In this document: positions 6,674 to 46,779 of the stretch, piece after piece
How positions within the stretch are numbered: the first letter of the stretch is position 1
Layout: every line of letters begins with the position of its first letter
From: Mizuhopecten yessoensis
Taxonomy: Eukaryota
Direction of reading: 5' to 3'
Length of the DNA stretch: 63,562 nt
Assembly (NCBI RefSeq): GCF_002113885.1
Contig: NW_018407979.1
Span: forward strand, 592,226 to 655,787
Notes under the pieces: model-generated
The model's database searches: none
Seen by the model: the letters and a program-made list of their open reading frames with translations, nothing else
Told to the model about the DNA's origin: nothing
Made by a program: the position numbers and the translations under genes

Positions 6674-6765
6674 TTAACTCTATCACCCCTGAAATTTCAT
6701 AATGAACTATTCCAACCTTTGAATGGGAGGAGTTCAAATGTGTCTTCAGGGGTGAATGAGTTAAC
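6674..6765. mobile_element. MITE family A copy (opposite internal orientation)
   Basis: TIRs with TTAA flanks. Confidence 0.7.
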
Positions 6766-13943: not shown

Positions 13944-16900
13944 TGCTGGTACTATCTCTGATGTCTTGACCTTTCCTGTCTTTCCCTTGCGCTTTGCAAT
14001 AAGCTGCTTGAGATTTTCCCGATCTTTCATAGAATTTAGTTTCATTTTCCACGTCTTAGGAAACTTCTTCAATTTTGGCATAGTCGGAGAAAGATCAGAA
14101 ACAGTAGAATCTGGCTCGATACTACCTTTAGAAGACTTTGGTGTAGACGAACCTTTTGGTGAGGAGATTTCTAAGTTGAGTTCTGGATCTGGTTTGACCA
14201 AGATTGCTTTTCTGTAAACTATTGGCTGCTTGTCTTTGTGATTGCGTCGAATGTGTTGAATGGTGAGAGATTTGGAGTGCGATTTATACTTGCACTCTTT
14301 ACATACCCAGTTCATGGTGTCATGTGCTAGCATCAGGTGCTGCCCAACGCCACGTACTGTCGACTCAAACGGACACTTAGGGCAACGGCCTTTCAACACC
14401 CTGGCTCTGTCTTCAGTATTTGTTATGTCCGGTGCTCCAGTTGACTTGGAAGGTGAGGATTCTGAAGAAAGATTGTACTCATAGACGTCGATCTTACTTG
14501 GAGTCTGTTGTTTGGAGGGTGATGTTTGTCCGTCGATTGATAAGGTCATGACCTTTCCCTGTAGTCCTGGAGTAGTGTCTACCTCAAGGTCTTTTAACAG
14601 ACAGAAACTCCGTACAAGGCTCACCGTCTTTCCGGGGTGCTCCTCCTTGTAGTGTGCGAGACCCTCGTATCTGTTAAGTGTGAAGTAAGTACACTCTGTA
14701 CAGGTGTACTTACACATCTTGTGTACCCAGAAGGCATGAAGCCTCACCCCGTTAATGGACTTTGACTGGTAATCACAAAGAGGACACTTTATCTTCTGTG
14801 GGTCTTTGGCTTTCACCATCACTTTAGCCTGAGACTTGGCCTTAGCTAGCTTCGAATATTTCTGACTGTACTTTTTCACATAGTTTGTCATTCTAGTGGA
14901 CTTCAGCAGGGTTGGTTTCTTCACTGAGGTTCTGGGGTTTTCTCCGTCACCTTCACTTGTGGCACAGTGACAGTTAGCCCTCCCAGGACTGGTACTCATC
15001 CTTTTTCTCTTCACATCTACTGAGCCTTCCTCTGAGGGACACTTATCACAACCTGAATGTATAACTGTTTTCTGTTCACTTTCAGAAACTTGCAATGCTA
15101 ACTTCAGCTTTTTCTTGTAAGGTCCTCTCACCATGTGTCTTTTTTCTAAATCTATGTTAGGTTTCTTTGATAACGCTGGTCTTCCTCTTTTTCGTTTTTC
15201 TGGACTGGCAGGAACGGATATTCCTGTCTCATTAAGGTCTCGCTGTTCCTCCATTGTGCTACTTGTACTGCTGGTAGAAAGTAATGAAGATGCATTATTG
15301 GATTCTGTGCGACTTCTGTTTCTCTTCGGTGGCATTGTAAGACTTTTTGTTCGCTTAACATACTTCCGTTTCACACGAGTGCCTGTGGCTGTAATGCTGT
15401 CCTGTCGCCTCTTCAGGGCTAGCAGACTATTGTTGATGGTTTCTTCTGTAAGAATACCAGTTTCGCTTGCCATTTTTCTCTGTTTCTCTAAACCCCTTGT
15501 AGCTGGGTCTGTCACACAGTCAATCTTTCTCTTTCGCCCCACCCTCTTCTTCTCTGATGACAGGGAAATTTCGGCACCTGCATTTACTTCTTCTTTCAAA
15601 TCTGAGTCTGTTTTTTTCCTTTTTGTCTCCACTAACTTTTCCTTATTTTGGATATTAACAGAAACTCCGGATCCTCTCTTAGATTTCATGACAAAGTGCT
15701 CCTGTGAACTTCCTGTAAGCTTCATTCTCATATATTTACGTTTCAAAGGACCAATGCCATGACCCCTCCCGATCCCCCTGCCCCTTCTCTTTTCTGTAGG
15801 ATCTCTCCAGGTTGGATCACCATCAGATCCACTCACTTCACTTTCCGGTACAGAGTTATCTGTTGAAGACTGGTCAGTTTCTATTTCAAATCTCCTTGAA
15901 CTTCCTCTCTTCCTACCTCTTCCACGACCAGCTTTATAGCCCAACGAATACCTCAAACTTCCTGCTGTGCTTGCTTTTGCCTCCACCATTTGACCATGGG
16001 AAAGTTTCTGTCGACGAACACCATTGTCTAAATTCAAAATTTCTCTTATGGTTTTTGTTCGTCCTTTCTTTTTCTTGTCCTCATTCTCTGTTGGTTGTCG
16101 GGTTGTATCAGGAAGCTTGGTCTGAGAGGCTTGGGAAGCCACTTGTGGACGAACCACGGTCTGTGGCTGTACAGCCATCTGTGCTGGAATTTGTGTTGGT
16201 ATCTGGGCTGGTACTTGTATAGGAATCGGCAATGGCATCTGCATTGGTACTGGAATCGCAATTCCACCAAAAGTTTGGATGAGATTGATTCTGCCGGCTT
16301 GGGTTGCTGCTTGAGCAGACATTACAGCCTCAGCATGAGGAACAGCTATCAAAGGAGTCTGGTTTCTTTGACTTATCATTTGTGGACTTACATTAACATT
16401 TCCTGTGATCTGTGATGCATTTTCTGCAGTAGAAACAACAGGATATGATCCAAGCTCAATCTTTTTCTTTCTACCCGGCCCTCTTCTTCTTGGTCCAACA
16501 ACAGGACTGATTTCAGTGACATCACCTGTAGATTGTACAGTGGGTTCATCTGGGTAAGTTACATACACATGTTCCTTTGTTTTCATAATTTTACTCTTCT
16601 TCTCTGCATGAATTTTCTTTTCCAAGCCTGACTCTGATGAATTTAATTCACCTTCGCCATCTCCAGAATGATCCATATCCTTCTTCCCTGTTGATGTCTT
16701 TGGATTTGTACTTTTGAAATGTTTGAACATGTCAAATGTCACAAGATTGCAGTCTTTGTACTTGGAAGGATTCCTTAGCACTCCACCTTCGGATTTCACC
16801 TTGCCTTCAAGGCGGATACACATTTCCAAGTACTTATCCAAGGCATTGTCCTTCTCTTTCTCAGGAGAAAACTCGTAGTTTTCAAAGCCACTGTGTCTTT

Positions 16901-18377
16901 TCTTGTTGTGGAAATTAAGTGTGGATTTGTCGGTGAACTTGTGACCACATAAGTTACACAGGAAAGGTTTATATTCAATGTTGATAGAAGCATGACGCCG
17001 GAGGTTGGTCTTGATAGGAGTGTTATACTTGCACCCTTTACACTTGTAGGACCTATAGAGTCCAGAGCCTCGGCTGTTTCGATCTGGTGTTGACAAATTT
17101 GAACAATCTGTACTGTTTGATTCATCCAGTCCAGAAGTATCGGATACATTCGGCTCAGCTTCGCCTGTGCTTTTCTCGACCACTTGTCTATCACTAGTTT
17201 CATCCAGAACAACTGCAGGCTTTTCAGTACTTGTAGGCTGTTCATCTGGTAGTGATGGTTTTGTTTGGTCATTCGTTCTAGGTTTGGTGACTAAAGCCAA
17301 GGGTTCCTCTTGTATATCTGGTATTATCTGTCCTTGATCTTTAGAGTCAGTCATTCTAGATGCACTGGATCTTTGCCCTCTACTCTGCTTTTGAACTTTG
17401 CCTCCATCCTGTGCAATATCACTCTCCTTTGAAGCTTGTGTTTCACATGTACTTTTGCCTTCATTTACTGTTTGATTCGTGGGCAATGATTGTTCTGTTT
17501 GTTGTTCAGTCAATACAGCTGAGGTTTTATCATTCGTAGTTTCTTCTTCTGTGTCTTTTTCCTGTTTGTTTTTATCGTCCGTACATATTGTTTCGGATTC
17601 TGATTCTTTTTCTTGTATGTCTGCATCTTTAGGACCACCATTGATTTTGTCTGTTGTTTCTCCCTCGGTTGCATTGCTTTCGTCTTTCTGTTGTAGAGCT
17701 GTTTTCTCTGTCGCCTCATTCACTGATGTCACATCTGGTTTTTCATCTGCCGGTTCCTTCTGTGGTAAAATTTCACATGGTGTCTCTTTGTTTGATAACA
17801 CTTCTTGTTCACTGGGTGTTGTCACTTGAGGTGTTTTTGCTTCATGTAAAATAGGTGATGTAACTTCCGGTGTATCAAGTGATGTCACTTCTTGTGTATC
17901 AAGTGATGTCACTTCCTGTGTACTGGATGATGTCACATCCTGTGAGTTTGATGATGACACTTCCTGTTTATTATCTATTTCAGTGTTGTCTACCGATGGC
18001 AGGCTTTGTTCGACATTTTGATCATTTGAGTTCTCTTCAGTGGTTTTTATAATGGCTGAACAGGGATCAGATTCTTTAATTTTCTGCTCCAACTTTTCCT
18101 CAGAACTGGCTTCCATGTCCTTTTTCTCAATTGGAGAAGGTTCGGTGCTTTGTTTTTGGTTTTCATCTTTTTTTGGATCTTCTTTCGGTTCTGTCACATT
18201 TTCCTTACTTTCAGCATCAGACTTTGCCTCTTCATTCTCTGTACCAGCACTGCCACATTGGTCAGTTACCACGCTCTCCGAGGTTGAAGTATCCGAAGAG
18301 GTTTTCTGGTCCGAGACTGGTTGCTCGCTACTGACATCATTGGCGGCTTTTTCAGCAATTGTATCAGACGTTGCCAT
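13944..18377 (-). CDS. Main coding exon (about 1478 codons) of a large nuclear AT-hook plus C2H2 zinc-finger protein. It has an acidic Ser/Thr/Glu-rich N-terminus with QEVTSLDT repeats and multiple GRP/RGRG/KRKRGRP AT-hook-like motifs. A Pro/Gln-rich block (PVPMQMPLPIPIQVPAQIPTQIP) is present. Three pairs of C2H2 fingers occur (YKCKGCKY...HNKKRH, CPLCDYQ...HYKEEH, CPKCPFE...RRNH).
   Basis: Uninterrupted 4.4-kb ORF in a 35%-GC genome. ATG at 18377 is preceded by an acceptor-like tgttttttcag (about 18437), suggesting an upstream 5'UTR exon. Consensus donor AG|GTAAGT at 13943/13942 ends the exon in phase 0. The remaining 93 nt of the raw ORF are intronic read-through. Confidence 0.8.
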
Positions 18378-19453
18378 ACTAGTCAGTGGAACAGGTAGTA
18401 TGGATATTAAGCTCCCTCTGTGTCAACAGTCAGCTGAAAAAACAAACATTTTTTTTTTTTAATTTGTTCAAAACGTTTAAAATAAGAACACAATTACTAG
18501 GCTAAAAATATTTCTTTTTCTTAAAATCATAAGACCCACATACCCATACTCTCAACTGTTGTTTTCAAAACTAATAAAAACACATCAAATCTGATGCCAA
18601 AATATTTTCATCCTGTTGTTCCACCCATTTAATTACAAATAAATTTTAGAAGGCCTAAGAAATTTTCAAAACTTGTGTCCAATTCATTTGAGATTTTTTG
18701 TTTGATAAAATGGCTTGAATGGGAGCAATAGGCTAGTTATGTTATAACAGATTAAAGTTGGTCTTTCTGCCTTTCTTGTGAGCACAATGACCAGCATATG
18801 GAAAAGGTTTGTACCTCAGCATTCAAGATTGATATGTAGAGGTTGAAATATGCATTTGTGTCACTTACAGCATTTTGCTAAAAGGTGATCAAAATGGGAA
18901 ATATCTATATGCTGAAAATGGCAATGTCATTTAGGGAATATTTTGACAATTGTCCTGCAAAAGGTAAAACTTCGATGATTTTTGTGTGTTTTTAAATTAG
19001 TCAATTTTAAACGCCCATATAGTCGCAACTGGATGTGAGAAAAGTTAACATTGCTAGCATTTTTAGAAGAAGAATGCATTAATTTGTTTAATTGCATTTT
19101 AGTTTTTGTTTGGGGTGGGGCCTCAAATCAAATTCATTCGTTGCATTAAATACCTCAAACTGAAGAAGTTCACACAATTACTTTCTTAAATAGCGGCCAA
19201 TAAAAAATGGAAGAATTTGTAAGTTTATAATGAACACTAGCATAACAGTGTCACTAGTAGAAACTGCAAGCAAACAATGATGGAGAATCATATTGGAATG
19301 TCTTTCCCCTACTGCAATTAGTTTCAATGTTTTTGCTTCATTTCTTTTGGAAATAATAGCACTAAACAGTTTGATCTTTTCTTTGTAATCAGTACATATA
19401 TATGTCAAAAAACATTCAAAGTCCTTGTGGTGGTTATATACAAAAAAAACAAA

Positions 19454-19558
19454 TGCAAAGAGTGTCTTAGTACCTCCCTAGTGCTTTCATCTCTTTAGAG
19501 GTCATGAACCTCTAAAGAGCTGAAAGCACTAGGGAGGTACACTAAGACACTCTTTGCA
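19454..19558. repeat. Near-perfect hairpin: 48-bp arms (GCAAAGAGTGTCTTAGTACCTCCCTAGTGCTTTCA.CTCTTTAGAGGT) around a 5-nt loop
   Basis: Reverse-complement identity of the arms. Confidence 0.8.
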
Positions 19559-22500
19559 TATGCTACTTATATAATATATGTTATGCAGATATTTTTATTG
19601 CCTTTCTTTGTAATGGCTGTTTAATAGAAAATTACTCAATTGGTTTATTATAATCAGTTAATATAATAATTTCTGTTTTGTTGTCTAGATTTTTCTCAGT
19701 CATGGTGTTTTGCACCTTGATTTCAGATTACTAGGTATTGTTGAGCCTTCCATATTAACTGAAGTGTAGCTGGCTAAAATATTGTTCGTAATAAGTTGCA
19801 TGTCATATTGGGACTTATAATAATAGGCTTTAGGCCAAACAAACAAATAAGTGTGTTTCATGTTATACTTTTGAAAAAATTAGGGTAGGTTAAAGGTAGG
19901 TAGGAAGGTAACTAAAAATAATTTCATATGGTTTCTATAGGAGAGTGATCTTGACTTTAACATGGTTTCTTTGATAATTGCCTGAAAAGTTTAGGGTAGG
20001 CACATAAAATTAGGGTAGGTAGGGTTACCTGGAAACACAAAATATTTTTAGTTCAGCCTTGCTGTATACACAAACCTGGTATTATTAATCAGTTATACTT
20101 GGGTGTTTATGACACCTCAATAGAAAACTGCGAGTATACAAACATCTAATTTTGTTTATTTATATATCTATACCTACACATCAATAATTCATGCCTCCTA
20201 AGTTTGAAAAGCAATGGTTATGAGCCGACACAACTCCTTATCATTCTATTTTGAATATTTTTAAATATCTCATTATTTACCCTTAATATACAGTACATCA
20301 CTGTACATGATGAATCACCTATGGTAAGTACAGTATATGTTATTTAGATAGTTGCCTCAGGTGATACATTTAAATACATGTTTAATCAGAAAAATATGCA
20401 GGGATTTTCTTATATATGCTATTTATGTCAGAATTCCTCCTTGCTATTTCCATTAAGACTTTGTATCATTTTACATAACAATCCATACAAAAAAATAGCA
20501 GTAATTTTCTTACAATGTTTTCAATCATGACAAAAAAATCATGATCTATATATAATAGCATTTACATCATACGTATGTATGCATACTTTATTCTTAAGTC
20601 TTAATAAATAAAAGTTAAAATAAAATTATGTAGCTTATAGCAGGAAGTAAAGTAGGTCAATATTGAATTATTCAATTAATCAACAGCAGCTGTACAGATC
20701 GAGACATCTGTTGTCTGTTAGCAGTATATCATGCTGAATAACTGACTAATTACTTTGCAGCAAGTTACATCATGCAGCATGTAATTCACATGCTATAAAA
20801 TAAGATTTACCTACATTTGCATACCAGCATGTCTACACATATCCTGCCATTATATACACGTAATGCAGTAGCATCATCATGTAGTACTGTAAAATATTCT
20901 TCATGTGTGAAGCAATACAACAGACTTGTAATACATATATACATAGGCATAATGAGAGAAGTATTGATTGTCAGTGGTGATTGACATAAGGCAAAGGAAG
21001 CCTGCAGTGCACTGTTATGTATACGTTAACAAAGGCACCATTTTTAGAACTAATATTATATTTATACTAATCAATATATAATATAGCGTTGCAAAGGAAC
21101 GAAACATTTCAGAGCTGTTCTGGTATTATGTATGCTATCTGTGCACACATTTATTAAAACTTTGCCGTTGAACCTGCATAGACACATCAGGTATTTAACA
21201 CTATACGGTATCCATTCACGTGTACAGTATACGTAATGGCATGTATGTAATCATACATAAACAATAATGAGTCAGAAATATTCATCCACCCGAATTACCA
21301 TTTCACGAAATTAACGCATATGGTCGCCTTTTATCGTGTGCATTATGACTATGTGAAACGCATATGTGTGTATGCATGTTGCAAATATTTGTTTATGTCA
21401 ACGAAATATGCCAATAGCTCAAATAAGGATAAGGTCATGTCCGACCGCGAGAGAGTAAGTTATTGTTTACAAGTGTAAACTGATGAGCGGAAATGGTCAA
21501 GGAGTGAAATTTGCTGCTCGCATTTATATACGCACGACCATGGTACATTATTTCATTCAACCTCTAAGCAAGAGCCACAAAACCGATCACCAGAAACTTA
21601 TATTTACCTGATTAAGTCTTGCATATTAGCTGACGTTCAGGACGTGGTCGACGAGCGTCTCTTCGGATTGGGTTGTGTATTGTGAATTTTCAAGCACTTT
21701 TCTGATCAAGAATGATTGAGTGCAGCATCAACACAAGTCTACCGATTCTCGCGATGAAAACACGTAGATGACCCAGAAAAGGGGAGATTATCAGTATTTT
21801 TTGGCGGAATATTTCAAGGTGCTACCAAAGGAGTTAAAATCAATATAACTATAACAATGAGTGAATCTGGATATAAAAATATCCCTTATACTATAACCCC
21901 CTCAGTTTTTTTTATAGTATAATGGATACTTTTTATATACATATTGCTATAGTTATATTGATTAAACGTCAGACTACAAAAAAACCACCCCTTACAGGGA
22001 CGTTTCTAGGATATTTGAAAGAGAATGAAATATTTTTTGGACCTTTTTTTTGCTAAAATACATAAAATAATTGTGAAATGCACTAATGTAACGGTTTCTG
22101 ACTTGGAGCCCATTACACCCTCACCTGGACCCGCCCCTGCCTTACACTGGTAGTTACTAACTTTTAGTGTGTACAGTATATTGATTTAACGTCAGGCTTC
22201 GAGGAACATGCAAATATGAATTATCATTTTTGTTTCTAGAACATTTGCTGCCGGACCTATGCCGACAAAATAAATAACAAATAACTGCTTCAGACGGAAC
22301 TGATGCAGACGGTATGCCTCTGAATGTTTCAAATCGTCTTTTATGTAGACCGCGGACGTAGATGACTGAGCTAATTCCGTGATATTTATAAGACCTTTTT
22401 CTTTGTGACATCGATTAATATAGACCTAATAGGGCACTAGTAGGCGCGGAGTGAAACCGTCGTAATCTGTCGACTGCAACTTTCTTATATACGGTTCGAG

Positions 22501-25329: not shown

Positions 25330-25500
25330 TTAACGCGTACTATAAGAGTTGTCTCCCTTAGAACGTAAACGGTCATCGATAAAAATAGAAGCAATGGAAC
25401 GCAATGTGATTGGTCAATCGAATGGCCACGCCCCCCTCACCGGCCTGCAGGATCTTGCTCAACATTCAGAAACTCTGCTGACGCAGCTTCAAGAACAGGT
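25330..25500 (+). promoter_or_regulatory. CpG-rich segment with an inverted CCAAT box and GC/CACCC box (TGATTGGTCAATCGAATGGCCACGCCCCCCTCACCGG), followed by a consensus splice donor (CAG|GTAAGC at about 25498). Candidate promoter plus non-coding first exon.
   Basis: Local CpG density is much higher than the flanking sequence, and the motifs are present. No long ORF. Confidence 0.3.
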
Positions 25501-26002
25501 AAGCATTCAGCATTTTTTAATTGATTTTATTTAAGTAAATCAGTGTTTTTAAATGGCTTTTAGTTTAGTGTTTAGAGTAAACTTAGTTTTAGTTATTGAC
25601 ATTTTATAAAACTGCACAGAAAATCGTCCCGAAAACGCTGCAAAACGCACGATTTTTTTTTTTACTTCCGCTTTATCGATCTGTGGAAGGGACGGACATG
25701 TTTATAAGCGTGTACTTGGAGACGCAACAACATAATTACACCGTCAGCAATTATTGTTAATATATAATAAACTTAACATTGATTAGTGTTACAATTGTTA
25801 GTGAATTGACCAATTATTGAAACTTCGTCACAATGAATTTTTCAGAACAGTGCATAATGTTAACATTTTTGAAGTTAAATTTATAGAATTTAGTAGGCCT
25901 TAGGAATTATAGAATGCACGAATTTGTCATGGAGATATATTCTTTACGAAGGTACAAAATACTGTTTTGATATCGTACATAACCCGCATTTCCTTCGGCC
26001 TA

Positions 26003-26216
26003 GGCCGTTTTCGTTTAAACGGTCAAACCGGTCGGACCACTGTTGTTCGTTTATCAAATAAGGTCGGACCTTGTAATCTGATGCTGCTTTCAGGCGAGCC
26101 TTGGCAAAGCCTTGCAAGTCCTGCATACACATTTGCAGGTCCGCCAGGATTTATACCCGACATTGTTACATTTATAAACGGTCAAACCGGCTGTTCCGCA
26201 TAAACGAACAGACCCC
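26003..26216 (+). repeat. Interspersed repeat family F copy (with subterminal inverted repeat AAACGGTCAAACCGG)
   Basis: Alignment to the other F copies. Confidence 0.5.
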
Positions 26217-27425
26217 TAATCACACAGGTACATTCTTGCACAACATTTCAGTATGACGTCACTAAGTGATCATTGCTATATTTACACACGGGTTTGTCCC
26301 AAGTACATCCCACAAAGACCTTTGATTGACATTTGAACATTTACACGGATTGCCAGAGCGTTGTGAAATATGTGTTTGTATGGTTAACATATACTGGTTG
26401 TCAGTGGCCTGTGAATAAAATAAAATAACAAATGCTGACAAAGCGCTGAATATACGTCATTCTGACAGGCTAGCACTTTTGTACCTTTAAAACCGGGAGG
26501 CATCTGAATATAGAAGTCAGTATGGGTGAATATATTTTCGCGTGAACATATACCACTGGGACACCATGACTTGACTGAAGACGACTCCCCCCTTCCCACA
26601 AGTCGCCGGCTTGTTGCTTACTATTTGGAGCTGATTTTTTTTTACTTGTGTACTGGTATTATATATAGGTAAGATTTTTTTTCGTAACTTTATTTGTCAC
26701 ATGCACAAGATCAGGACACCATTTTAAAGTAATAACTTAAAAATATTTATCAATATCAGCGGCAGTATATTCTGTAGAGGTACATCGTTATAAATATTTT
26801 ATGGTAGCGATATAGGTCTCAGATTTGTCTTTTTATATAATATATACATGTAAGTGCAATGCTGGATAAATCTATTCTAAACACTTTTCTGAGTGGTTAA
26901 GTTTGTGTTCTTATCGTCCTTTGTATGATAACATCTTAACACTTAACAGAGGATGAGGGATGCATGTAATTACACTTAATTAATACACAGTATGATATCT
27001 ATATTGGTATATCTAACATTACAGTTCAGTGTTGCTAAGTATTTTCATCCTTGTCATTTACTCAAGCAGTATTGACATTGTATCATTATCTATACATACA
27101 TGTACATTATAATGACATTTAAAATAGATTGTCAAAATATCCTTTCATATATTAGCATCCTGCAGAATTTCTAATTGTTACCAAAGTCATTTATATTTCA
27201 CGATGTATATTTCTGATTTTCTGCACATTTCTCAGTCATATATGGGTATACAATGTATATGTTCACCAACTGTGGCTTATATATCATCTTTAAACAATAC
27301 AGCAGAAAAAATTGTGATTGTAATATTCTGCTTGTTGCATCATACGGAGTGGAAGTCAGGTCTTTATCCGAAAAATAATGTATGTGTTGAACCATATCAC
27401 TAAATGTTGCATCATACTCCAGCCT

Positions 27426-27516
27426 TTAACTCATTCACCCCTGAAATTTCTTAATGAACTGTTCCAACCTTTGAACTAGAAGAGTTCAAATGTGTCTTCA
27501 GGGGTGAATGAGTTAA
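27426..27516. mobile_element. MITE family A copy
   Basis: TIRs with TTAA flanks. Confidence 0.7.
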
Positions 27517-30100
27517 TTGTGAGAGAAGTTAAGGTTTATTGAGTGAAACTTTAATATAAATATGATGCCTGTCATTTCACTTCTCACCTCACTTTATGTG
27601 ACAAACTTTCCAGATTATCTGTACTTTGTAATGCAAACACTTTAATTTCTATGTGTACCTGCATGATATACCACCAAACCAGCAATCCTGTTTCCTCTCA
27701 TATAAAGCCCCCTATGCTCTTCCATCAAGACCAAGATTGATTAAACTTGTTGATAATTGTTGTAAAATATTTATATTTAACTTGACTTAAGGTATGACAA
27801 GGGGAAGTATAAAAGGAGTACCTATTTCAATAGACGTTTATTTTTAAAAGCGAGCCAGGGGGAAGGAAGTACCCGTAATATTACCAGCTTACAGTACCTA
27901 AAAAGATAAATGTGCCGTTTGACAGTAATGTTGTACACTTGTAATCAGTGATACAGCATATAATATTTCCTTGTGAATGACTCATTCAAGGGCCTTAATG
28001 GTTGTCTATTTCCTCATTATTATCAAATAACTTCTTCCTGTATACCTGTCACTGGAGTCGCACAGTAATATCAAATAATAAGTAAATATATATTGGATAT
28101 GTTACATCCTGACTTGCTATAAGCTGCTCGAAAGCACAACACAGTACATTCATATACAATCAGTGCTAGGGCTGCAGCGATACATTAACATGACAATACG
28201 ATATGTATCACGAAACTGTGGTCACGATACGATACATATCATGATACATATAGTAACAGTAGAAGCAAGGCGAAAAGATCTGTTGCAAATTTTAATGGCA
28301 ATATTACAACTGAAAATAGACTTGGTCCTTAATGGGCATCACTTTTAAAGTTTCACTTAATTCACATCTTTTGACGTGCATGCCAAGTTTGAGCTGTCAC
28401 TCAGCATGTTTGCACCGATATGAGTAGACTAAATTCAGAATCGACAAATCCGGAAAATATTGTATGTGTATCGTAACCTCTGAACAAATATTATGTATTG
28501 TACTGCATTCAAAATATCACGTTGCAGTCCTAATCAATACAGTATTGTGTTATTAGGCACTAACTACTCAGGTTCTATGCCACCTGACTAATGTCTCCAC
28601 ATGTGTGTATGCATGTTTTTGTACTGGAGATGTGTTTTGTTCTGATTTGTAGTGGGACTTTGTTTCCAATAGGCAAAATAAATCACTGGTTGATAATGCG
28701 GTCAAATCAACCAGTAAAAATATATTCACTACAGGCTGTCGTACACGTACATGCTGTTTCATTGCATCGTAATATATGTATGTGTGTTGATTTGGGATAA
28801 TTTACTTGGTGAGGGTGCCAGCGACAGGTGTTGGGGAGCATGACTTAATTATTGATGTGAAACAAATTGGGAACTAGGTAGGCGTAAGATTTATGAAAAT
28901 TATATACAATTACTCTCGAGACAAGTTGTAATCTGTAGTCATGGTTTGATCCCTAGCGGAGGCATTCAAAAAGATAACTTGAAAAGAGGACTTGGCTTAG
29001 CCTATTATCCAATCCTTTTGTTATTTCCCCCTGGTATCAATAAGATCTGTTGAAACAAAATGAAGAGAGTAACCTTATTACAGAGCACAAGACTTGGTAC
29101 AGTATAATGTACCGTACATGTGTTTGATTCCTTTTGTCATATCAGGTAAAATTGATTATCGGATACTTGCTGTGTCATCAACAACATAAAAGCTATTGAT
29201 TTAACTATATACCAAGTACTCTTTATATAAAGTATAGAAGGGTACCTGTATAACACACATATATAAAGTAGAAGGTCGCCTGACACCTGTATACATGTGT
29301 ATCAGGTATTATCTGTTGCCCTAAAATGTTGGCACAGATCCAGATTAGTGACTCTATATAATTACACATAACTGTCTGTGCCAGACATTTCAATCTTTTG
29401 AACTTACAATAAATAAATGGTGAGCCCAATAAACGGTGTACTTTGTTAGTGTAAGGTATTTCAAAGTAGAATTATTTTTACCCTGAGTGACCTTACTCGA
29501 ATGTTCTGTCTCGCAATGTCACAAGCTTGTATGTGTACACACCTGTCTAAATTGGATATTGTATAGTTTGGAAGCTCATCAAAAACACTTCATTCATAAC
29601 TTAAGTGAATCCTACAAAATCCTTAACCTGAAGGCTGCTTTCATTTTATGTGGTCCAAAATTTTCGACCATTTTTTCTTTTTTATCGGAGTTGTTCGTTT
29701 ACGAAATAGTGACGGGCCTAGTGATTTGATGTAGCTTCCTGGTGAGCCCTAGCACTAACTTTGAAGGACTGCATCTACAGGTCTGACTGGCTTTATTCCT
29801 AAAAATAGTACATTTATAAATAGGTGAACCAGTTTGTCTGCTTAAACAAGCAGGCACTTAATAATTATAATTGCCAAACTGCTGTTGCATGGTCACTTAA
29901 ACAAAATGTCAAACTTCGTGGTAGTCAAATGTCAGATGATATTTATATTCATGCATGAACAAAAAATGATCCTAGAAGATTGACAAACATTGAAAAAGTT
30001 ATCTATATTCAGTGAAAATAGGAAGTCTAAAATCATTCACTTGTGACTACAATTTTACAAACTGAATACCTGTTTGTTTGGGCCAGGTGGAACGTGACAG

Positions 30101-30500
30101 TCACCAATCAGAATGATTTTTTTTCCAGATAAAACTTTATTTAGTCTATTATGAAACAAGTTTTATCAAATACCATTTATCAATCAGGATGTCTGTAACA
30201 GCAGATTTTCATATTGACTTGTGTCTGTATAGTACGTACCAGGAAACCAATAAAAAAACTAATGTTTGTTACTTTCGTTTCCAAAAAATATTCAAATTAA
30301 CCAATCAGAATGTCTTTTTGTTGTAAATAACCAATCAAAATGTAAGTTGTCATATCTTACCAATTATTGAATTAATAATGTCTGCGTTATATACACTACC
30401 AATCAGAATAATGTCCTATACATGTTTGATGCAAAAAATCATAAAATCATACAACCAATCAAAACGTCTTATTTGTTACAGATAACCAATCAAAATGTCC
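30101..30500 (+). promoter_or_regulatory. Array of seven CCAAT (NF-Y Y-box-like) motifs of the form AACCAATCA(G/A)AATG at about 30103, 30181 (variant ATCAATCAGGATG), 30299, 30329, 30397, 30453 and 30485. The last copy contains the MVP start codon.
   Basis: Direct motif recurrence. CCAATCAG is the classic NF-Y site. The 45-bp segment 30299-30344 is duplicated at 30453-30500. Confidence 0.5.
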
Positions 30501-30637
30501 GTCTCTCGTCGTGGAGGAGAGGAGCTGTCCTTGTTTAGGATCCCTCCCTACTACTACCTCCATGTCCTCGACCAAAACCTTAATGTTACCCGTTTGGAGA
30601 TCGGGCCCCAGACCTACATCCGCCAGGACAATGAAAG
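30495..30637 (+). CDS. MVP: Major vault protein exon 1 ([47 protein letters not shown] + first two bases of the Arg codon), phase-2 end.
   Basis: ATG at 30495 is the first in-frame ATG after a TAA stop. Donor AG|GTGAGG at 30638. The N-terminus aligns with the vertebrate MVP N-terminus (IPPYHYIHVLDQN...YIRQDNER). Confidence 0.85.
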
Positions 30638-31132
30638 GTGAGGCTTTTGCACAAAATTTACTGCAGAGGATAAACAGGTTTCTTCTGAATGTAGAATCCT
30701 GACTTGACAAGTAGCTTTTCTCTTGTTTACATTCATGGCTGATAATTCATTTTTGAAGGAGCATTTGTGGACATTTTTTTAATTGATGTACAAATTATAT
30801 TTACACTGCAAAAATGGATGTAGGGCCGGCCGGTTGCTCACAGGAACAAAAGCTCTGCCATATTTATCCTACAATAAGCCCGGGGGGCTAGTGCATAATT
30901 TCTGACTCAAAATAGGGATGGGCTTATTACAGAGAAGTTAAAATGTATTTGTTGAAATTTTATTTAAACTGAAATAGATGTGGATGGGCAGATAAATTTG
31001 GTTTCCTATTCGATTTATTATAGTGCAAACTTTTAACTGAATCGGTATATAGTGAAACATGTTTTTATTTAATTCTGTAATTCTTCAAAATCTTTGAACT
31101 CCTGTCTTATAAGAAGTGTCTCGTGTCTACAG

Positions 31133-31328
31133 GGTGGTGTTTGGGCCGGAGAAGATGATCACAGTTCCCCCGAGGAACTACTGTCTGATCGAGAACCCCC
31201 ATGTCCGCGACAAGGACAACAAGGTTGTACTGGACAACAGCGGCCAAGCCAAACTTCTCCACGCTGACCAGGAGATTCGTCTTGCTCAGGACCCTTTCCC
31301 TCTCTACCCTGGTGAGGTCTTGAAACAG
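31133..31328 (+). CDS. MVP: MVP exon 2 (R)[17 protein letters not shown]...[12 protein letters not shown]
   Basis: Acceptor tctacag|G completes the Arg codon. Donor CAG|GTAAGA at 31329. Conserved with MVP repeat 1-2 sequence ([31 protein letters not shown]). Confidence 0.85.
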
Positions 31329-31581
31329 GTAAGACAGCTTAAAATTTTCATATTTGATTGACTGAGTTCGTTTAAAGTTTAGAACATAATTGAAAGTATT
31401 TTTATATCAAATTAGCATTAATGACACCAGCATTATATAAGAATCAATGTTTTATTTCATTGAAGTTGATCTATCCAAAATATATAGGAATAAAAGTCAC
31501 TCTCTGCCATCTAGTTGTCCTTAAATGTATTTGTGAAGGTGTAATTCATTATATATTGATGATGTAAATTTGTTACTTTAG

Positions 31582-31932
31582 GTTGTGACACCCCTAAAAG
31601 TTGTGAATGCTAACTCAGCTCTCCGTCTCCGATCCATTCTCGACTTTGAAGCTGAGGATGACATTAAGAGGACTGCTGGTGATGAATGGTTATTTGAAGG
31701 ACCCGGGACTTACATCCCTCGCAAGGAGGTGGTGATTGATGAAACTGTTCGCGCCACTGTGATCCGTCCTAACCAGGCAATCCGTCTCCGGGCTCGTAAG
31801 GAGACGATCGACCGTCAGGGAACACCCCGTGTCACTGGGGAGGAGTGGCTTGTTAAGAAGACGGGAGCCTACCTTCCCGGGGCCTATGAGGAGGTGGTCG
31901 ACATCGTCAATGCTTTCGTCCTCACAGACAAG
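31582..31932 (+). CDS. MVP: MVP exon 3 [17 protein letters not shown]...[18 protein letters not shown]...[16 protein letters not shown]...AFVLTDK (117 codons)
   Basis: Acceptor ttactttag|GTT. Donor AAG|GTATGG at 31933. Diagnostic MVP repeat motifs [18 protein letters not shown] and VTGEEWLV. Confidence 0.9.
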
Positions 31933-32212
31933 GTATGGCATTGTATATCACTTACAAATAGTCATAAATGTCAGTAAAATCAAGATCTCACCTCAAATTT
32001 CTTTTCTTGGGTTATTGGAAAATTTTACTATTGGGTAAACGGGGAAATATTCACATAATGTTATTGTAATTTCACTCTGAAGTACAATATATATATACAG
32101 TGGACAGATATTGATAAAAAGTCAAGTGAAGCTGTATGCTATACTAAACAAATATAATGATGTAGTATTGATTTGCACAACTCTGTACAAAAATAAGCTG
32201 TAACTGTCAAAA

Positions 32213-32303
32213 TTAACTCATTCACCCCTGAAGACACATTTGAACCTTTCCAACTCAAAGGTTGGAAGAGTTCATTATGAAGTTTCAGGGGTGAATGGGT
32301 TAA
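32213..32303. mobile_element. MITE family A copy inside MVP intron 3
   Basis: TIRs with TTAA flanks. Confidence 0.7.
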
Positions 32304-32434
32304 GGGGGTAAAGAAGCTTTATCACCTTAAGAGACGACCAGCGATAAAGTAAATCGAGTAAATCGGGTAAAACAGGTAAAGGACATTTATTTTGAACTCA
32401 ATATTAACTTACCATTTGTTTTGGCGTATTGCAG

Positions 32435-32560
32435 AAAGCCCTTCACATGAGGTCCCTGAGAACTTTCAAGGACGACTTTGGTGTTGTGAGGAAAAACGGA
32501 GAGGAATGGTTGATCACCATGACCGAGACAGAAACTCACATCCCCAATGTTTACGAAGAG
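32435..32560 (+). CDS. MVP: MVP exon 4 KALHMRSLRTFKDDFGVVRKNGEEWLITMTETETHIPNVYEE (42 codons)
   Basis: Acceptor tattgcag|AAA. Donor GAG|GTTCGT at 32561. Aligns with vertebrate [27 protein letters not shown]...HEEV. Confidence 0.85.
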
Positions 32561-33006
32561 GTTCGTATAAAATATCTACAATTCACATATATATCTATTA
32601 TGTTGAAATATTATTTTTGATTGATTGTATATCTAAAAATTTAAGTTTAGAAATTCACAATTTCCAAACAACTTAATAATGCAGAAATATTCATATTTTT
32701 TTGGTCGCAAATTGCAATTTTGAGTGATTAATTTCCACAATCTGCAAAAAAACCCCATAAAGAATACAAGCTTAAAATCTTGGGGAAAACCTTAGAAATC
32801 TAAAACAGGAAGTACAAGTGCAAGTAATTACTGTTAGCAGCTGAAGTTAACAAGAAAGCAAGGCGAAATGTTTACATTGTTTAAACTATCACAGAAATAT
32901 ATTTGCATATCAGACGTAGCATGGAAACTTATCAGTAAGATATTGAAAATGTTTCCTGGTGTTTATCCTTTGAGTCATATCGGTTATATTCTTTCCATGA
33001 TGACAG

Positions 33007-33117
33007 GTTGTGGGTGTGGTCTCCATTACGACCTTGACCTCCCGTCAGTACTGTGTTCTTTTGGATCCCTGTGATGATTCTGGAAGGCCACAGCTCGGCA
33101 GAAAGAGGCTGGTCAAG
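33007..33117 (+). CDS. MVP: MVP exon 5 [37 protein letters not shown] (37 codons)
   Basis: Acceptor gatgacag|GTT. Donor AAG|GTAAGA at 33118. Aligns with [21 protein letters not shown]...QLGQKRVVK. Confidence 0.85.
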
Positions 33118-33235
33118 GTAAGATTTGTCGATGTCATAGAATTTGTCAGGTTTTTGGGTTGAAAGATAACAGAATATGATATCATATAATGATTATAAAA
33201 GTGAGACTATAATACTTTCATTTTGCTTAGGAATT

Positions 33236-33365
33236 TAGAATTCAATTCAAGGTCATCTGCTACAAATCATTGCATTTCAAGGTCGTCTGCTACAAATCGT
33301 TGCATTTCTAGGTCGCCTGCTACAAATCGTTGCAGTTCAAGGTCATCTGCTGCAAATCATTGCAC
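33236..33365. repeat. Minisatellite, 4 copies of a 30-bp unit (TTCAAGGTC(A/G)TCTGCTACAAATC(A/G)TTGCA) in MVP intron 5
   Basis: Direct tandem copies. Confidence 0.8.
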
Positions 33366-33633
33366 TTGAAGTATATTATGAAGATGTGGGTTGTAAATTA
33401 CATAAAAAAGTTCAGGACCGAAAAGGCCTTTGAAATTAACTGTTATCAAGACATCCCAATTTGTAATAAAAAGTCTTCAGACTGATTTTGTTTCCGTATT
33501 GAATCGAGTAAGATTAATTGAAGGGAGTGAAACTTTTTCACAGAATTTGAATAATGAGATAGATTCTAATGGATATTGATAATTGACATGGAATATATTT
33601 TGATGTTTTCCATGTTTTTACTTTTAAATTTAG

Positions 33634-33909
33634 GGAGAGAAATCTTTCTTCCTCCTGCCTGGCGAGAGTCTTGAGAGGGGTATCCAAAACATTTATGTGC
33701 TTGGTGAAGAGGAAGGTCTCATTCTCAAGGCTACTGAAACATTCAAGGACGCAGACACAGGGGAAGACCGTCGTCCCGGTGACCGGTGGATGATCCGAGG
33801 ACCTAAGGAGTATGTACCACCCACAGAGGTGGAGGTCGTCCTCAAGAGACGGGCAATCCCATTGGACGAGAATGAGGGTATCTACGTCAGGGACATCAAA
33901 AATGGAAAG
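33634..33909 (+). CDS. MVP: MVP exon 6 [33 protein letters not shown]...[21 protein letters not shown]...[19 protein letters not shown] (92 codons)
   Basis: Acceptor aaatttag|GGA. Donor AAG|GTGAGC at 33910. The near-invariant MVP motif [12 protein letters not shown] is present. Confidence 0.9.
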
Positions 33910-34383
33910 GTGAGCATCATCTCTGTGAAACAATCTTCCATCTTTACAGAAGTTCTCGGAATAATAGGGGACAATATCAACACACTTTTTAATCTTTGTC
34001 TCTCTAACTGCAATATAGACTTTATAGATATCAGGATGAGGACTTTTTAAGCCAGATTCGATTAAGCAATCATTCTGGCAAATTTTCCAAATGCTGTTTT
34101 TAAGAAATTCAAAAGAATTGATGGTTATATTATTTGCATACCTAAAATCAGTCAATTTTATCGTTTCATTCAGTGAACTTAATGAATTTCTTTGGAAATT
34201 TTGAGGGAGCATCTTTACCATTTTCAATAACTGCCTTAATAGGGTTAGTTTAAAAAACGATTTCATTATGTTTTTAGTGAATACACATGAAAATCATGTT
34301 TAAGAAAATCTGTTGTACTATTGATGCTGATAAAATATTTTGAATGGTGTAAAACGTTCACGGATCAATGTTTGTTGTTTTAG

Positions 34384-34965
34384 GTGCGTGCGGTTACTGC
34401 AGAGACTTACATGCTGAGTCACGATGAGGAATTGTGGGAGAAAGCCCTTCCCCCAGCAGTTGAGACCCTCCTAGCCCAAGGGAAGGACCCTATGGCTGAT
34501 CGGGGTGCGCGAGGACAGAGCACAGATACCACAAAGGCTCGGGACAAGACGAGGGTCATCACTTTCCGTGTACCACATAATGCTGCAGTGCAGATATACG
34601 ATTACAAAGAGAAGAAAGCTAGAGTTGTATTTGGCCCTGAACTGGTCATGCTTGGCCCTGACGAACAATTCACCCAGCTCAGTCTGTCCGGTGGTAAACC
34701 AAAGAAACCCAATTCTATCAAATCCCTTTGTCTGTTGCTTGGTCCCGACTTCATGACCGACATCATTGTCGTGGAGACCGCCGATCACGCACGACTCAGC
34801 CTCCAACTATCTTACAACTGGCATTTTGATATCAAAGACAAACTTGATGAAAAGGATGCTCACAAAATCTTCAGTGTACCAGATTTTGTTGGTGATGCCT
34901 GCAAGGCGATCGCATCCCGGGTTAGAGGAGCTGTGGCTCAAGTCCAGTTTGATGACTTCCACAAG
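34384..34965 (+). CDS. MVP: MVP exon 7 [20 protein letters not shown]...[27 protein letters not shown]...LLGPDF...[18 protein letters not shown]...[23 protein letters not shown]...FDDFHK (194 codons)
   Basis: Acceptor tgttttag|GTG. Donor AAG|GTAAGG at 34966. Long stretch nearly identical to vertebrate MVP ([49 protein letters not shown]). Confidence 0.92.
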
Positions 34966-35259
34966 GTAAGGACCATCGTCATTTTACTTCCTCTTCTACT
35001 ATTCAAACCTCCTCTCCAGAGATCACGCTTATATATTTTGTATAATTACCTGAACCTATATATGGAGGCCACATGAATAAAATAAAATCGACATGGAATT
35101 CCTAAGGGTAGTTTTGTACACAGGCTTGACTTTATCATGTTTATATATGATGAAGATCAGAAAGTGTGCTTCAGGGTCCTGGTTTTGTTGTCTGGTGGAA
35201 AGCAATGCAAAATATAGCAAAATAGCCCATATTCTTAAAATCCTTCATTCTGTGTACAT

Positions 35260-35349
35260 TTAAGCCTTTCAACACTGTGACCATAATGGACTCATCCAGA
35301 TCAATGCATGGTAGAGTCTACTAAAGTTGCATAGGGGTGAAAGGGTTAA
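35260..35349. mobile_element. MITE family B copy inside MVP intron 7
   Basis: TIRs. Confidence 0.65.
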
Positions 35350-35781
35350 ACCTGTATTCAGAGACCGCACTTTTGGTCTCATATCCCATATTCTAAATCT
35401 TATTTAGAATAAGACCTTCAGAAATTATTGGAGTGATCTATGATCGCAGGTGTTGAATCTCTCATTGATGTATGAGTCATCACAGAAATAGCGGCAATTG
35501 GGAAAGTAGAGGTGTTCTATTGAACAGGTTTTTTTAACAGTCATAGAATTTTCCCATCCATAAATTACTAAACTTTTAACTAGCTTACAAAATTATAAAA
35601 AAACATGCTTTTTGGATGTCTAGATATTACAGTAAATGTCGGTAATGAAGATATGGATAACTAATTTGCTATCTGCATCAGTTATCATTTGAAATCATGT
35701 AACAAAAACTACACCTTCAGGTTGTTGAACATTTCTTTGTGTAAGACTTTTAATATATTTGACTGTTTGATTTTCCTCTAG

Positions 35782-36237
35782 AACTCCGCCAGGATTATCC
35801 GATCCTCTGTGTTTGGTTTCGATGCGAAGGACAAGGTGCGGGACCAGTTCGTGTTTGGTCAGAACTGTCTGGTGATGACAAGCATTGACATTCAGTCTGT
35901 GGAGCCAGTCGACCAGAGGACACGTGATGCCTTGCAAAAGTCAGTCCAGCTCGCCATCGAAATCACCACCAACTCACAGGAGGCTACAGCTAGACACGAG
36001 GCTGAGCGTCTTGAACAGGAAGCCAAGGGCCGTTTGGAACGACAGAAAATCAGCGATGAGGCAGAAGCTGAAAAGTCGCGTAAGGAACTTCTGGAACTGC
36101 AGGCCAACAGTGCGGCCGTGGAGAGTACCGGTCAGGCCAAGGCAGAGGCTCAGTCCCGGGCTGAGGCCTCGAGGATCGAGGGAGAGGCTGCCGTTGAGCA
36201 GGCCAAACTCAAGTCCATGGCTATGAAGATTGAAGCC
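35782..36237 (+). CDS. MVP: MVP exon 8 [18 protein letters not shown]...[31 protein letters not shown]...[18 protein letters not shown]...KIEA (152 codons; shoulder/cap-helix region)
   Basis: Acceptor tcctctag|AAC. Donor GCC|GTAAGT at 36238. [37 protein letters not shown] and [14 protein letters not shown] match vertebrate MVP almost residue for residue. Confidence 0.92.
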
Positions 36238-36419
36238 GTAAGTATTTTGTAGAGATCAAGACATAGTTGTATTAAATGTCATAGCTTATTGGTATGTTAG
36301 GAAAATATTGAATTATCTTAAAAATTAAACCAGTGCATTTTGGTATTATTCAAAATACTCTCTTTTCAAATATTTAATAAATAACTGATAAAAGACTTTT
36401 GAGATGCTTTAGGAAAAAT

Positions 36420-36860
36420 CCAAAATTTTATTTATAGCATATGCCAACCTGTCTATAAAGGGAAGTTACTCCTCTTTTATCAAATACAGCCTGTAAACCT
36501 GGCTGTCTATAAAAGGGAGCCAAATCATGTTATCTTTATATAATAATAAACAACATTTGACAAAGCCCCTTATCTAGCTAACATAAGCCACTCTAAAGCG
36601 CTTTACAATGAGTAAAGCTCTTTAAATAGGAGTGTATTGACTTTTATTCCATATAACATTCTATAATAGGAAATGAATTCAGTTTTAATATAAGGGAATA
36701 AACCTACCTGCCTTTAACAGGAGCAACTTTTTTATTCCTTATATCTCCCTGTAAACAGGGTTAACTGTTTATTCCCTAGGTTTACCTGTCTATGAAGGGG
36801 AGATAATACCACTTCAGTATAATGTCTGCCTGTCTATAAAGGAGACCTGTCTATAAAGGT
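36420..36860. repeat. Six dispersed copies of the motif (G)CCTGTCTATAAAGG(G/A)GA within MVP intron 8
   Basis: Motif recurrence at 36452, 36503, 36782, 36829 and twice around 36840-36870. Confidence 0.6.
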
Positions 36861-36951
36861 GACCTGTCTTTGAAGCACAAGATTTTTGTATGAACATTTT
36901 GACTTCTTTTAACACAAATATCTTCAACTATAATCTGATTACATTTTATAG

Positions 36952-37290
36952 GAGTCTGAGTTGGAGAGACTGACCAGTGCCCGGGAGGCTGAACTGAAAT
37001 ACGTCCGTGAGCAGAATGACATGGAACTCACAAAATCAAAGGAAATGTCCAACATCGAAACCGATAAGTTCAAGAAGATGGTGGATGCTATTGGAGCCAA
37101 CACACTCCAGTCCATTGCAGTGTCTGGACCGGAGATGCAGGTCAAGATGTTGACTGCGCTTGGGCTAAAGTCCACACTTATCACAGATGGTAGCAGTCCA
37201 ATCAATCTATTCAACACGGCCAACGGGTTAATTGGAGGCCTAGTTCCATCTAAGAGGCGTCATGCTCCCGCGGACTCTGATGAGGATTAA
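36952..37290 (+). CDS. MVP: MVP exon 9 (terminal) [18 protein letters not shown]...[74 protein letters not shown], stop TAA 37288-37290
   Basis: Acceptor ttttatag|GAG. Conserved C-terminal coiled-coil motif [28 protein letters not shown]. Total CDS about 859 aa against 893 aa for human MVP. Confidence 0.9.
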
Positions 37291-38930: not shown

Positions 38931-39150
38931 GTTTATTGCAATCCAAATAGTTGGACCAGCTGGACCAGAGTTATTCGTTAATGAAATAAGGGCGGACTTA
39001 TTAACCTCTCGCTGCTTTCAGGCGAGCATTGACAAAGCCTTGCAAGGCCTGCATGAAGATTCGCAGGTCCGCCAGCATTTGTACCCGAAAATGTTAATTT
39101 AAAAACGGATGTACCCTTTGTTACACATAAATAGCCAATGAACAAGCCCC
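38931..39150 (+). repeat. Interspersed repeat family F copy
   Basis: Alignment to the other F copies. Confidence 0.5.
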
Positions 39151-46691: not shown

Positions 46692-46779
46692 ACTTATTCA
46701 CCCCTGAAATTTTATAATGAACTATTCCAACCTCTGAGTTGGAAGAGTTCAAATGTGTCTTCAGGGGTGAATGAGTTAA
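46692..46779. mobile_element. MITE family A copy (5' end truncated)
   Basis: TIRs. Confidence 0.6.

Follow-up and report, generated by a model that had tools for sequence, protein, structure and literature searches.

The start codon of MVP in the scallop Mizuhopecten yessoensis is preceded by a dense series of CCAAT boxes, each of which carries a copy of the sequence context in which the start codon itself is set. The question raised by this locus is whether the array is a promoter driven by NF-Y, as its motifs would lead one to expect, or whether it arose in some other way. The analysis covered the whole stretch of DNA presented above (63,562 nucleotides, hereafter the window), together with the corresponding region in other scallops.

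The MVP gene and its first exon

The spliced translation of the window is identical in all 859 residues to the M. yessoensis protein XP_021364753 (P0121), and because this match is exact, the window can be taken as Yesso scallop DNA or something extremely near to it. The protein is 94%–95% identical to MVP of Argopecten irradians, Pecten maximus, and Ylistrum balloti, and Vault repeat and MVP-shoulder Pfam domains are on record for MVP homologues. NCBI holds two mRNA products with an identical protein for MVP in three scallops, and therefore some alternative UTR exists; the two M. yessoensis mRNAs encode XP_021364753 and XP_021364754. Look-ups of M. yessoensis MVP transcripts—using the full protein, the partial XP_021344753, and the 48-residue open reading frame of exon 2—returned none. 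A protein search with the N-terminal 113 residues gave nothing above 89% identity, a metagenome scan with the leader and start-codon sequence gave no match, and a literature search on scallop MVP yielded no account of its promoter or 5′UTR.

Evidence on the 5′ end of the transcript comes from the closest-homologue cluster, which comprises a genomic locus of Argopecten irradians (L001) and three RNA-derived Logan contigs (L002–L004), with the full MVP coding sequence. The 5′UTRs of L003 and L004 are 100 nt and 87 nt long, respectively. The first 87 nt of L003 (74 nt in L004) match positions 6496–6582 of L001 at 100%, and in the genome these are followed by a GT...AG intron of 3405 nt (L001 6583–9987). 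Exon 2 begins at L001 9988, 13 nt 5′ of the ATG, and the mRNA junction reads ...GAAGAACAG/ATAATCAATCAAAATG (the slash marking the splice boundary, here and below), with AACAG as the ending before ATAATCAATCAAAATG. L002 starts 7 nt upstream of this exon-1/exon-2 junction, and each of the three contigs either begins in exon 1 or is spliced from it, exon 1 being joined directly to exon 2.

Argopecten exon 1 is 86%–89% identical to positions 25412–25509 of the window, where it is bounded by the donor CAG/GTAAGC (boundary between 25498 and 25499, with the GT at 25499–25500). Between Mizuhopecten and the three other pectinids, the exon 1 block shows 80%–94% identity, and in Pecten and Ylistrum it also lies 3.4–4.5 kb upstream of the MVP ATG. 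The four-pectinid alignment shows no variation in the donor or in most of exon 1, and at the far end of the intron, all four species have kept the acceptor (Y)AG/ATAA and the leader of 13 nt. At 4-fold sites, Mizuhopecten differs from the other three at 45%–55% of positions, and most of intron 1, which holds dispersed repeats at 26003–26216 and 27426–27517, is unalignable among pectinids; hence, the conservation of exon 1, its donor, and the block upstream of it reflects constraint and is not neutral. As in Argopecten, M. yessoensis is expected to splice exon 1 (ending at 25498) to exon 2 (starting at 30482).

The original prediction had raised the possibility of a 5′UTR intron whose donor sits in an upstream copy of the repeat. 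The intron and the acceptor that it named are borne out by the Argopecten mRNA, but the donor that the evidence supports is not the one within a repeat copy; it is the one offered as an alternative, at 25498 in a CpG-rich block, where it ends the conserved non-coding exon 1. The acceptor itself had been recognised correctly (AG at 30480–30481, exon 2 from 30482), but the ATG follows 13 nt into the exon rather than 10 nt.

Exon 1 sits within a CpG-undepleted domain that runs from ~21.2 to 26 kb, the CpG observed/expected ratio being 1.35 at exon 1, as compared with 0.58 for the window as a whole and 0.49 across the array. Three motifs of the adjoining block—ATCGATAAAA, GATTGG, and CAC(G/A)CCC—are conserved across the four pectinids. 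The ATCGATA in this block is DRE-like, and no TATA-like sequence was seen in the block. The promoter is most likely this conserved block at ~25.37–25.43 kb, which would give a non-coding exon 1 of ~87 nt. The putative TSS most likely lies near 25412–25430, about 4.7–5.1 kb upstream of the array; the accuracy of this placement is limited by that of the 5′ ends of the assembled Argopecten contigs, the 5′ end of exon 1 having been set at the position that matches the 5′ end of the longest of them. Coordinates are collected in Table 1.

Table 1. Features of the promoter block, 5′ leader, CCAAT array, and MVP coding region, in positions of the window.
Feature	Position	Strand	Basis
Conserved promoter block	25372–25433	+	Motifs invariant in four-pectinid alignment
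GTCATCGATAAAAATAGAA, containing ATCGATA	25372–25390	+	
Inverted CCAAT box ATTGG (GATTGG in alignment)	25409–25413	+	
CACGCCC box	25427–25433	+	
Putative non-coding exon 1 of MVP (5′ end approximate)	25412–25498	+	Orthology to Argopecten transcripts L003 and L004
Putative intron 1 (5′UTR intron), 4983 nt, GT...AG	25499–30481	+	Orthologous Argopecten intron
Array of nine same-orientation box units	30102–30499	+	Motif scan, unit alignment, simulation
Box starts, U1–U5	U1 30104, U2 30180 (TCAAT), U3 30247, U4 30301, U5 30331	+	
Box starts, U6–U9	U6 30360, U7 30399, U8 30455 (box B), U9 30486 (box A)	+	
U1 copy with acceptor-like TTTTTTTTCCAG/ATAA (AG 30127–30128)	30103–30132	+	Local alignment to 30454–30485
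Upstream copy U4–U5 of the two-box acceptor/start-codon segment	30299–30343	+	41/46 match to 30453–30498
Donor-like sites GTT/GTAAAT (30323) and AAT/GTAAGT (30342)	30323–30347	+	Sequence match
Functional two-box segment: box B, T-rich tract, acceptor AG 30480–30481, leader ATAACCAATCAAA, ATG 30495–30497	30453–30498	+	Alignable in 4/4 pectinids
Exon 2: 13-nt leader, then first coding segment	30482–30637	+	Gene model; ATG 30495–30497
MVP coding region, nine coding segments	30495–37290	+	Reconstructed gene model; translation = P0121
MVP coding segments 1–5	30495–30637, 31133–31328, 31582–31932, 32435–32560, 33007–33117	+	
MVP coding segments 6–9	33634–33909, 34384–34965, 35782–36237, 36952–37290	+	

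Composition and origin of the array

Between 30104 and 30490, there are eight CCAAT and no ATTGG, all eight boxes lying on the + strand. Six of the eight extend to CCAATCA; as a match of sequence, six read CCAATCA(G/A), mostly preceded by A/A. Intervals from box to box are 76, 67, 54, 30, 29, 39, 56, and 31 nt, and the region is AT-rich (GC ~0.29–0.36). The seven copies of a CCAAT box joined to the start-codon context that had been counted at the outset are indeed present: matches to AACCAATCARAATG are exact at 30299, 30329, and 30484 (n = 3) and number five at ≤1 mismatch and six at ≤2, all within 30102–30497 on the + strand, and the seventh copy, TATCAATCAGGATG at 30178–30191, has three mismatches. 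Two more bare CCAAT, at 30247 and 30360, come in addition.

Over the whole window, 13 matches to AACCAATCARAATG occur at ≤2 mismatches against 2.75 expected, a number reached in none of 100 shuffles. The densest 400-bp cluster in simulations (n = 500; second-order Markov, window-based) held at most six CCAAT against the eight observed and at most three CCAATCA against the six observed. Tandem Repeats Finder (TRF), even at a score of 30, does not call the array and reports only an unrelated 8-nt repeat, because the units are too degenerate and too irregularly spaced.

Alignment of the nine units, together with a search using the functional segment, yields a repeat unit of ~30 nt, consisting of (T)AACCAATCA(G/A)AATGTC, a T-rich run, GTTAC, and AG/ATAA. 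In composition, this unit is box B together with the polypyrimidine tract and acceptor of intron 1, and box A, which opens exon 2, comes next; within the array, box B is U8, in the final 30 nt of intron 1, and box A is U9, in exon 2. The start-codon context recurs at every box because the box and the ATG are both part of a single leader sequence, ATAACCAATCAAAATG, that was duplicated.

The 45-bp duplication reported earlier likewise holds, with 41 of 46 positions alike between 30299–30343 and 30453–30498 and one gap, and it can be extended to 67 nt at 79% identity. In this U4–U5 copy, GTAAAT stands where the functional segment has ACAG/AT, and the ATG continues directly as GTAAGT; the donor-like CAAAAT/GTAAGT that had been noted here is present, but its GT lies at 30342–30343 and not at 30339. 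U1 retains ACCAATCAGAATGATTTTTTTTCCAG/ATAA, and the pyrimidine fraction of its acceptor-like site (0.65) equals that of the real MVP acceptors. U2 retains GGATGTCTGTAACAGCAG/AT, and the end of U6–U7 is AATAATGTCC, which copies the first codons.

Self-comparison found no similarity to the array elsewhere in the window, Rfam gave no hits at the gathering threshold (and, at E up to 1, only two sub-threshold matches elsewhere in intron 1), and ARAGORN found no tRNA; these results therefore point to local duplication and not to a transposon or an RNA gene. The array is most likely a degenerate, same-orientation tandem duplication of the segment that runs from the 3′ end of intron 1 into the beginning of exon 2, and its placement and its origin by duplication can be stated with considerable confidence. 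It would fill the last ~380 nt of intron 1, and only the last box, within the 13-nt leader of exon 2, would reach the mature mRNA.

Box B contains a conserved TAAC ~25–28 nt from the acceptor; box B was considered as a candidate branch point, an idea that was dropped. Judging selection on the CCAAT core by conservation among the paralogous units was also abandoned, the units having been found via the box (ascertainment bias).

The array among scallops

Four pectinid genomes were compared (Mizuhopecten, Argopecten, Pecten, and Ylistrum). All four possess the proximal box pair, 31 nt apart and flanking the acceptor. Both Mizuhopecten and Pecten have CCAAT/CCAAT as boxes B/A; Argopecten has CGAAT/TCAAT, and Ylistrum has CTGAT/CTGAT. 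In the comparison with orthologous regions, which the original prediction had proposed as a check, the two-box core is found in 4/4 pectinids, but the CCAAT pentamer in only 2/4. The MVP start of Mytilus is without such a motif.

A PWM of the unit (cut-off ≥9 bits; background ~0.2 per kb per strand) gave seven hits upstream of the ATG in Mizuhopecten, a count that is partly circular in that the matrix comes from Mizuhopecten's own units. It gave four in Pecten (at −730, −471, −43, and −12), two in Ylistrum (−267 and −12), two in Argopecten, and none in Mytilus. The array is biggest in Mizuhopecten, yet it is partly present in other scallops and so is not wholly lineage-specific. Alignments of the array with the other scallops (global and local-pair) disagree in placement, so that U1–U3 and U6–U7 carry no one-to-one orthology assignment.

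One upstream copy does find counterparts in other species. Pecten L005 9253–9285, AATGTTCTTTGTTGTAAGTAACCAATCAGAAT, matches Mizuhopecten 30309–30341 at ~30 of 33 positions, and a similar copy, CCAATCAGATTGTCTATTTGATGTAAC, lies at Ylistrum L006 9737–9762. The upstream copies of these three scallops have GTTGTAA(A/G/C)T in common, where the functional copy has GTTACAG/AT. Local-alignment scores this high were reached by one of 93 background segments of 1.3 kb. This suggests that an old upstream duplicate has been kept better than neutral DNA, either by selection or by gene conversion, with the constrained proximal pair as its source. The CTGAT state is found in both proximal boxes of Ylistrum and in one Pecten copy (L005 9352–9376), and this common state suggests concerted evolution among the copies.

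A history that would account for these observations begins with an ancestor of the four scallops in which a pair of direct repeats, spaced 31 nt apart, already flanked the acceptor. Direct repeats invite replication slippage or unequal exchange, through which the array may have expanded, and in Mizuhopecten the CCAAT-type unit would have come to hold eight positions. Transcription would start ~5.1 kb upstream, at the CpG-rich conserved block, and after exon 1 the array would be spliced out together with intron 1. This composite explanation—tandem duplication in a 5′UTR intron, a promoter ~5 kb upstream, and no required promoter role for the array—is probably correct. That the array is without required function is slightly favoured.

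Alternative readings and known systems

RRCCAATCAG is the preferred NF-Y site, and the flanks of the array boxes match it. The array might accordingly be read as a functional NF-Y platform, serving either as an internal alternative MVP promoter (its TSS lying inside the array or a short way downstream) or as an intronic enhancer, its number of sites multiplied by duplication in the Mizuhopecten lineage; such a role appears unlikely. It would draw on eight intact CCAAT, six of them with the CCAATCA(G/A) flank, and on three intervals of 29–31 nt, which come close to the 26–30 bp at which NF-Y binds double CCAAT in vivo in human cells, the spacings of such pairs peaking at 24–30, 36, and 43 bp (PMC4889920). 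There is also precedent in ERV9/LTR12, whose CCAAT tandem repeats bind NF-Y and are important for the expression of beta-globin (PMC3730095). Three species have kept at least one upstream copy containing a box, and two mRNA isoforms are annotated for the one protein.

Several observations stand against this role, however. The array is CpG-depleted and gene-body-like, unlike exon 1; the 5′ ends of all three Argopecten contigs lead back to exon 1; no conserved TATA-like element lies beside the array in Pecten (by inspection); and single-strand orientation and common flanks are expected from duplication alone. Promoter sites of NF-Y lie 40–100 bp upstream of the TSS (PMC3730095), and the array falls outside this range when the TSS is placed by orthology with Argopecten. 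The ancestral boxes, 9 and 40 nt upstream of the ATG, straddle the splice acceptor and are too near the ATG to serve a TSS. CCAAT is absent from the orthologous proximal positions in Argopecten and Ylistrum, and two of the four species are thus non-CCAAT there. The ancestral box pair is unlike a conserved NF-Y promoter element in its behaviour. The array had been proposed as an NF-Y-driven core promoter built by local duplication; the duplication is supported, the units being alike beyond the box, but the core promoter is not, the array lying, by orthology with the Argopecten transcripts, in intron 1 and the first nucleotides of exon 2.

The upstream copies might also constitute a conserved regulatory module of scallop MVP, in which an old duplicate of the acceptor/start-codon segment was retained throughout the divergence of Mizuhopecten, Pecten, and Ylistrum while its acceptor turned into the donor-like GTAA(G/A/C)T beside a CCAAT. 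The retention of a copy between species would agree with this, and gene conversion is the other source suggested above for that retention; overall, such a module is quite unlikely. If it were real, it could act as an NF-Y-driven internal promoter, supply an alternative 5′ exon, or provide a decoy splice site with uATG-laden leaders; the output of vault protein could be stress-responsive, analogous to the human uORF-containing MVP variant, and the copies would evolve in concert as CCAAT or CTGAT type. Should the GTTGTAAGTAACCAATCAG copy truly be fixed and conserved across pectinids, selection would be favoured, and if its retention were functional, the locus would offer a small, tractable case of splice-site duplication co-opted for 5′UTR regulation.

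It is very unlikely that the array is a module for alternative splicing in the 5′ leader. In one version, the donor GTAAAT at 30323 or GTAAGT at 30342 would end an alternative 5′ exon; in the other, use of the acceptor-like site at 30128/30129 would produce a uATG-rich leader with lower translation, like the human uORF variant. The region does contain the acceptor-like TTTTTTTTCCAG/ATAA, two donor-like sites, and nine upstream ATGs between 30129 and 30494. The GTAA(G/A/C)-type motif is common to the upstream copies of Mizuhopecten, Pecten, and Ylistrum, a similar GATGTAAGAT lies ~85 nt upstream of the Argopecten ATG, and the two annotated isoforms have an identical protein. A human MVP splice variant with a small uORF that inhibits expression is on record, to go by the title given in PMC3875758 (Holzmann et al. 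2001, FEBS Lett 494:99). Against both versions, all three Argopecten contigs join exon 1 straight to exon 2 and have no such junction; the exon side of the donor-like sites is poor (GTT/ and AAT/), whereas AG precedes eight of nine real MVP donors; and the four species share no conserved acceptor/donor pair in a consistent position. A recursive splice site was considered separately and ruled out, the upstream copies being without the AG needed before GT.

The chance build-up of an AT-rich motif, or an assembly artefact, has a negligible likelihood and is effectively refuted already: the region is AT-rich and TRF makes no call, but none of the 500 simulations attained the observed density and none of the 100 shuffles the observed motif count, the units have common flanks beyond the motif, and the proximal pair and some upstream copies also occur in independently assembled scallop genomes.

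The array is a fresh example of intronic tandem duplication that incidentally multiplies a promoter-like motif. Its chief value lies in a correction, namely that what pass for textbook promoter boxes before a start codon appear to be duplicated sequence of an intron/exon boundary, and this is a caution for promoter calls made by motif in invertebrate genomes.

In human MVP, exon 1 is non-coding and the start codon is found in exon 2; this 5′ architecture, with its early exon-2 ATG, appears to hold in scallops as well, where MVP has a non-coding exon 1 and an ATG 13 nt into exon 2. The human promoter is TATA-less and contains a GC box together with an inverted CCAAT box (PMC3216873, PMC7916137); the scallop block has, in like manner, an inverted CCAAT (25409–25413) with a GC-type box, CACGCCC (25427–25433), alongside. 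Unlike its human counterpart, the putative promoter block of the scallops also has an invariant ATCGATA-containing motif. The repeat array at the 3′ end of the scallop intron is without a described human counterpart.

With multi-CCAAT NF-Y promoters, such as the double CCAAT modules of cell-cycle genes, and with ERV9/LTR12, the scallop array shares boxes that are in one orientation, well flanked, and in some cases 29–31 nt apart. It differs from them in being intronic, ~5 kb downstream of the putative TSS, in that its boxes, which are candidate NF-Y sites, are not conserved as CCAAT at orthologous positions, and in that the source of its unit is not a retroviral LTR but the acceptor/start-codon segment of MVP itself. 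Minisatellite-like intronic repeats, which evolve through slippage or unequal exchange and whose units show concerted evolution, offer a further comparison: the scallop units are likewise head-to-tail in one orientation, with a core period of ~30 nt, their copy number varies among relatives, and the CCAAT and CTGAT variants have spread differently by lineage. Unlike such repeats, however, the scallop array is very degenerate, irregular, and unscored by TRF; its terminal unit is a functional acceptor, leader, and ATG, and one or more of the internal copies seem to be conserved from species to species.

Variation among repeat copies and CCAAT clusters

In Ylistrum, CTGAT replaces CCAAT in both of the proximal boxes—the last two units of the array, which flank the intron-1 acceptor—with the same two changes in each. 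An upstream copy in Pecten maximus also reads CTGAT where the CCAAT type would be expected. This shared variant suggests that gene conversion or concerted evolution has acted among the repeat copies. Between its upstream copies and the proximal pair, P. maximus additionally carries some 320 bp without a Mizuhopecten counterpart, which, judged by eye, is likely to be a SINE insertion.

The window contains another cluster of CCAAT boxes on the same strand, comprising five boxes in units of the type (T)TCTAACCAAT(A/T)T, with the last four spaced 24–37 nt apart. Upstream of this cluster lies a sequence resembling the head of a tRNA-derived SINE (GGCCGCAGTGGCTGAGTGGTTAAGGCG), at which ARAGORN identified no tRNA. 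The cluster is probably a piece of a transposable element.

Positions of features in the M. yessoensis window and in the MVP loci of other scallops (− denotes the minus strand)
Feature	Sequence	Position	Other copies
CTGAT proximal boxes	Ylistrum (L006)	9958-10003	
CTGAT upstream copy	P. maximus (L005)	9352-9376	
Segment lacking Mizuhopecten counterpart	P. maximus (L005)	about 9560-9880	
Recurring 13-nt string	Argopecten irradians (L001)	18594-20642	
Second CCAAT cluster	window	50524-50733	
SINE-head-like sequence	window	50301-50340	
Dispersed ~90-bp repeat	window	27426-27517	e.g. 5902-5993, 6674-6764, 32204-32306, 46691-46779
Further repeat	window	26003-26216	13316-13515, 38962-39131, 29690-29862
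mir-3931 match	window (−)	29321-29393	
Open reading segment	window (−)	13854-18422	
CpG-undepleted stretch	window	21.2-26 kb	
Conserved block	window	21585-21817	
Intron-1 island	window	26225-26370	
CRE-like palindrome	window	about 26254-26261	
Promoter-block motif	window	25372-25390	

Dispersed and tandem repeats

The dispersed repeat of approximately 90 bp, which looks MITE- or SINE-like, is present in more than 10 copies across the window, in both orientations and at 82%–93% identity. Downstream of MVP in A. irradians, a 13-nt string corresponding to positions 48-60 of an Argopecten transcript contig (L003) recurs about 11 times at intervals of 73–657 nt, many of them near 145 nt, which indicates a tandem satellite-like repeat 3′ of the gene. 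Rfam also gave a weak hit to mir-3931, which is probably due to chance: at 26.5 bits (E = 0.03) it falls well short of the gathering score of 49.

Conserved sequence around the probable MVP promoter

A minus-strand gene, oriented away from MVP, is represented by an open reading segment of 1523 codons that is of low complexity and rich in serine and lysine; its Pfam matches are all sub-threshold and include a C2H2-type zinc finger. Between this gene and MVP lies a CpG-undepleted stretch containing a conserved block, and both promoters may reside within this stretch.

Inside MVP intron 1, a second island is conserved in all four pectinids. Within it, a CRE-like palindrome, TGACGTCA, is invariant and is followed about 15 nt in the 3′ direction by GCTATATTTA(A/C)ACA(T/C)GGGT(T/A)TGTCCCA, which has the look of a TATA box. 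The island could be an alternative TATA-plus-CRE promoter or an exon 1b, or else an intronic enhancer, and it may be linked to the two annotated mRNA isoforms of MVP.

In the promoter block itself, GTCATCGATAAAAATAGAA is near-invariant in the four scallops and lies a short distance 5′ of the inverted CCAAT; its ATCGATA core presumably resembles the insect DRE, a housekeeping-promoter motif.
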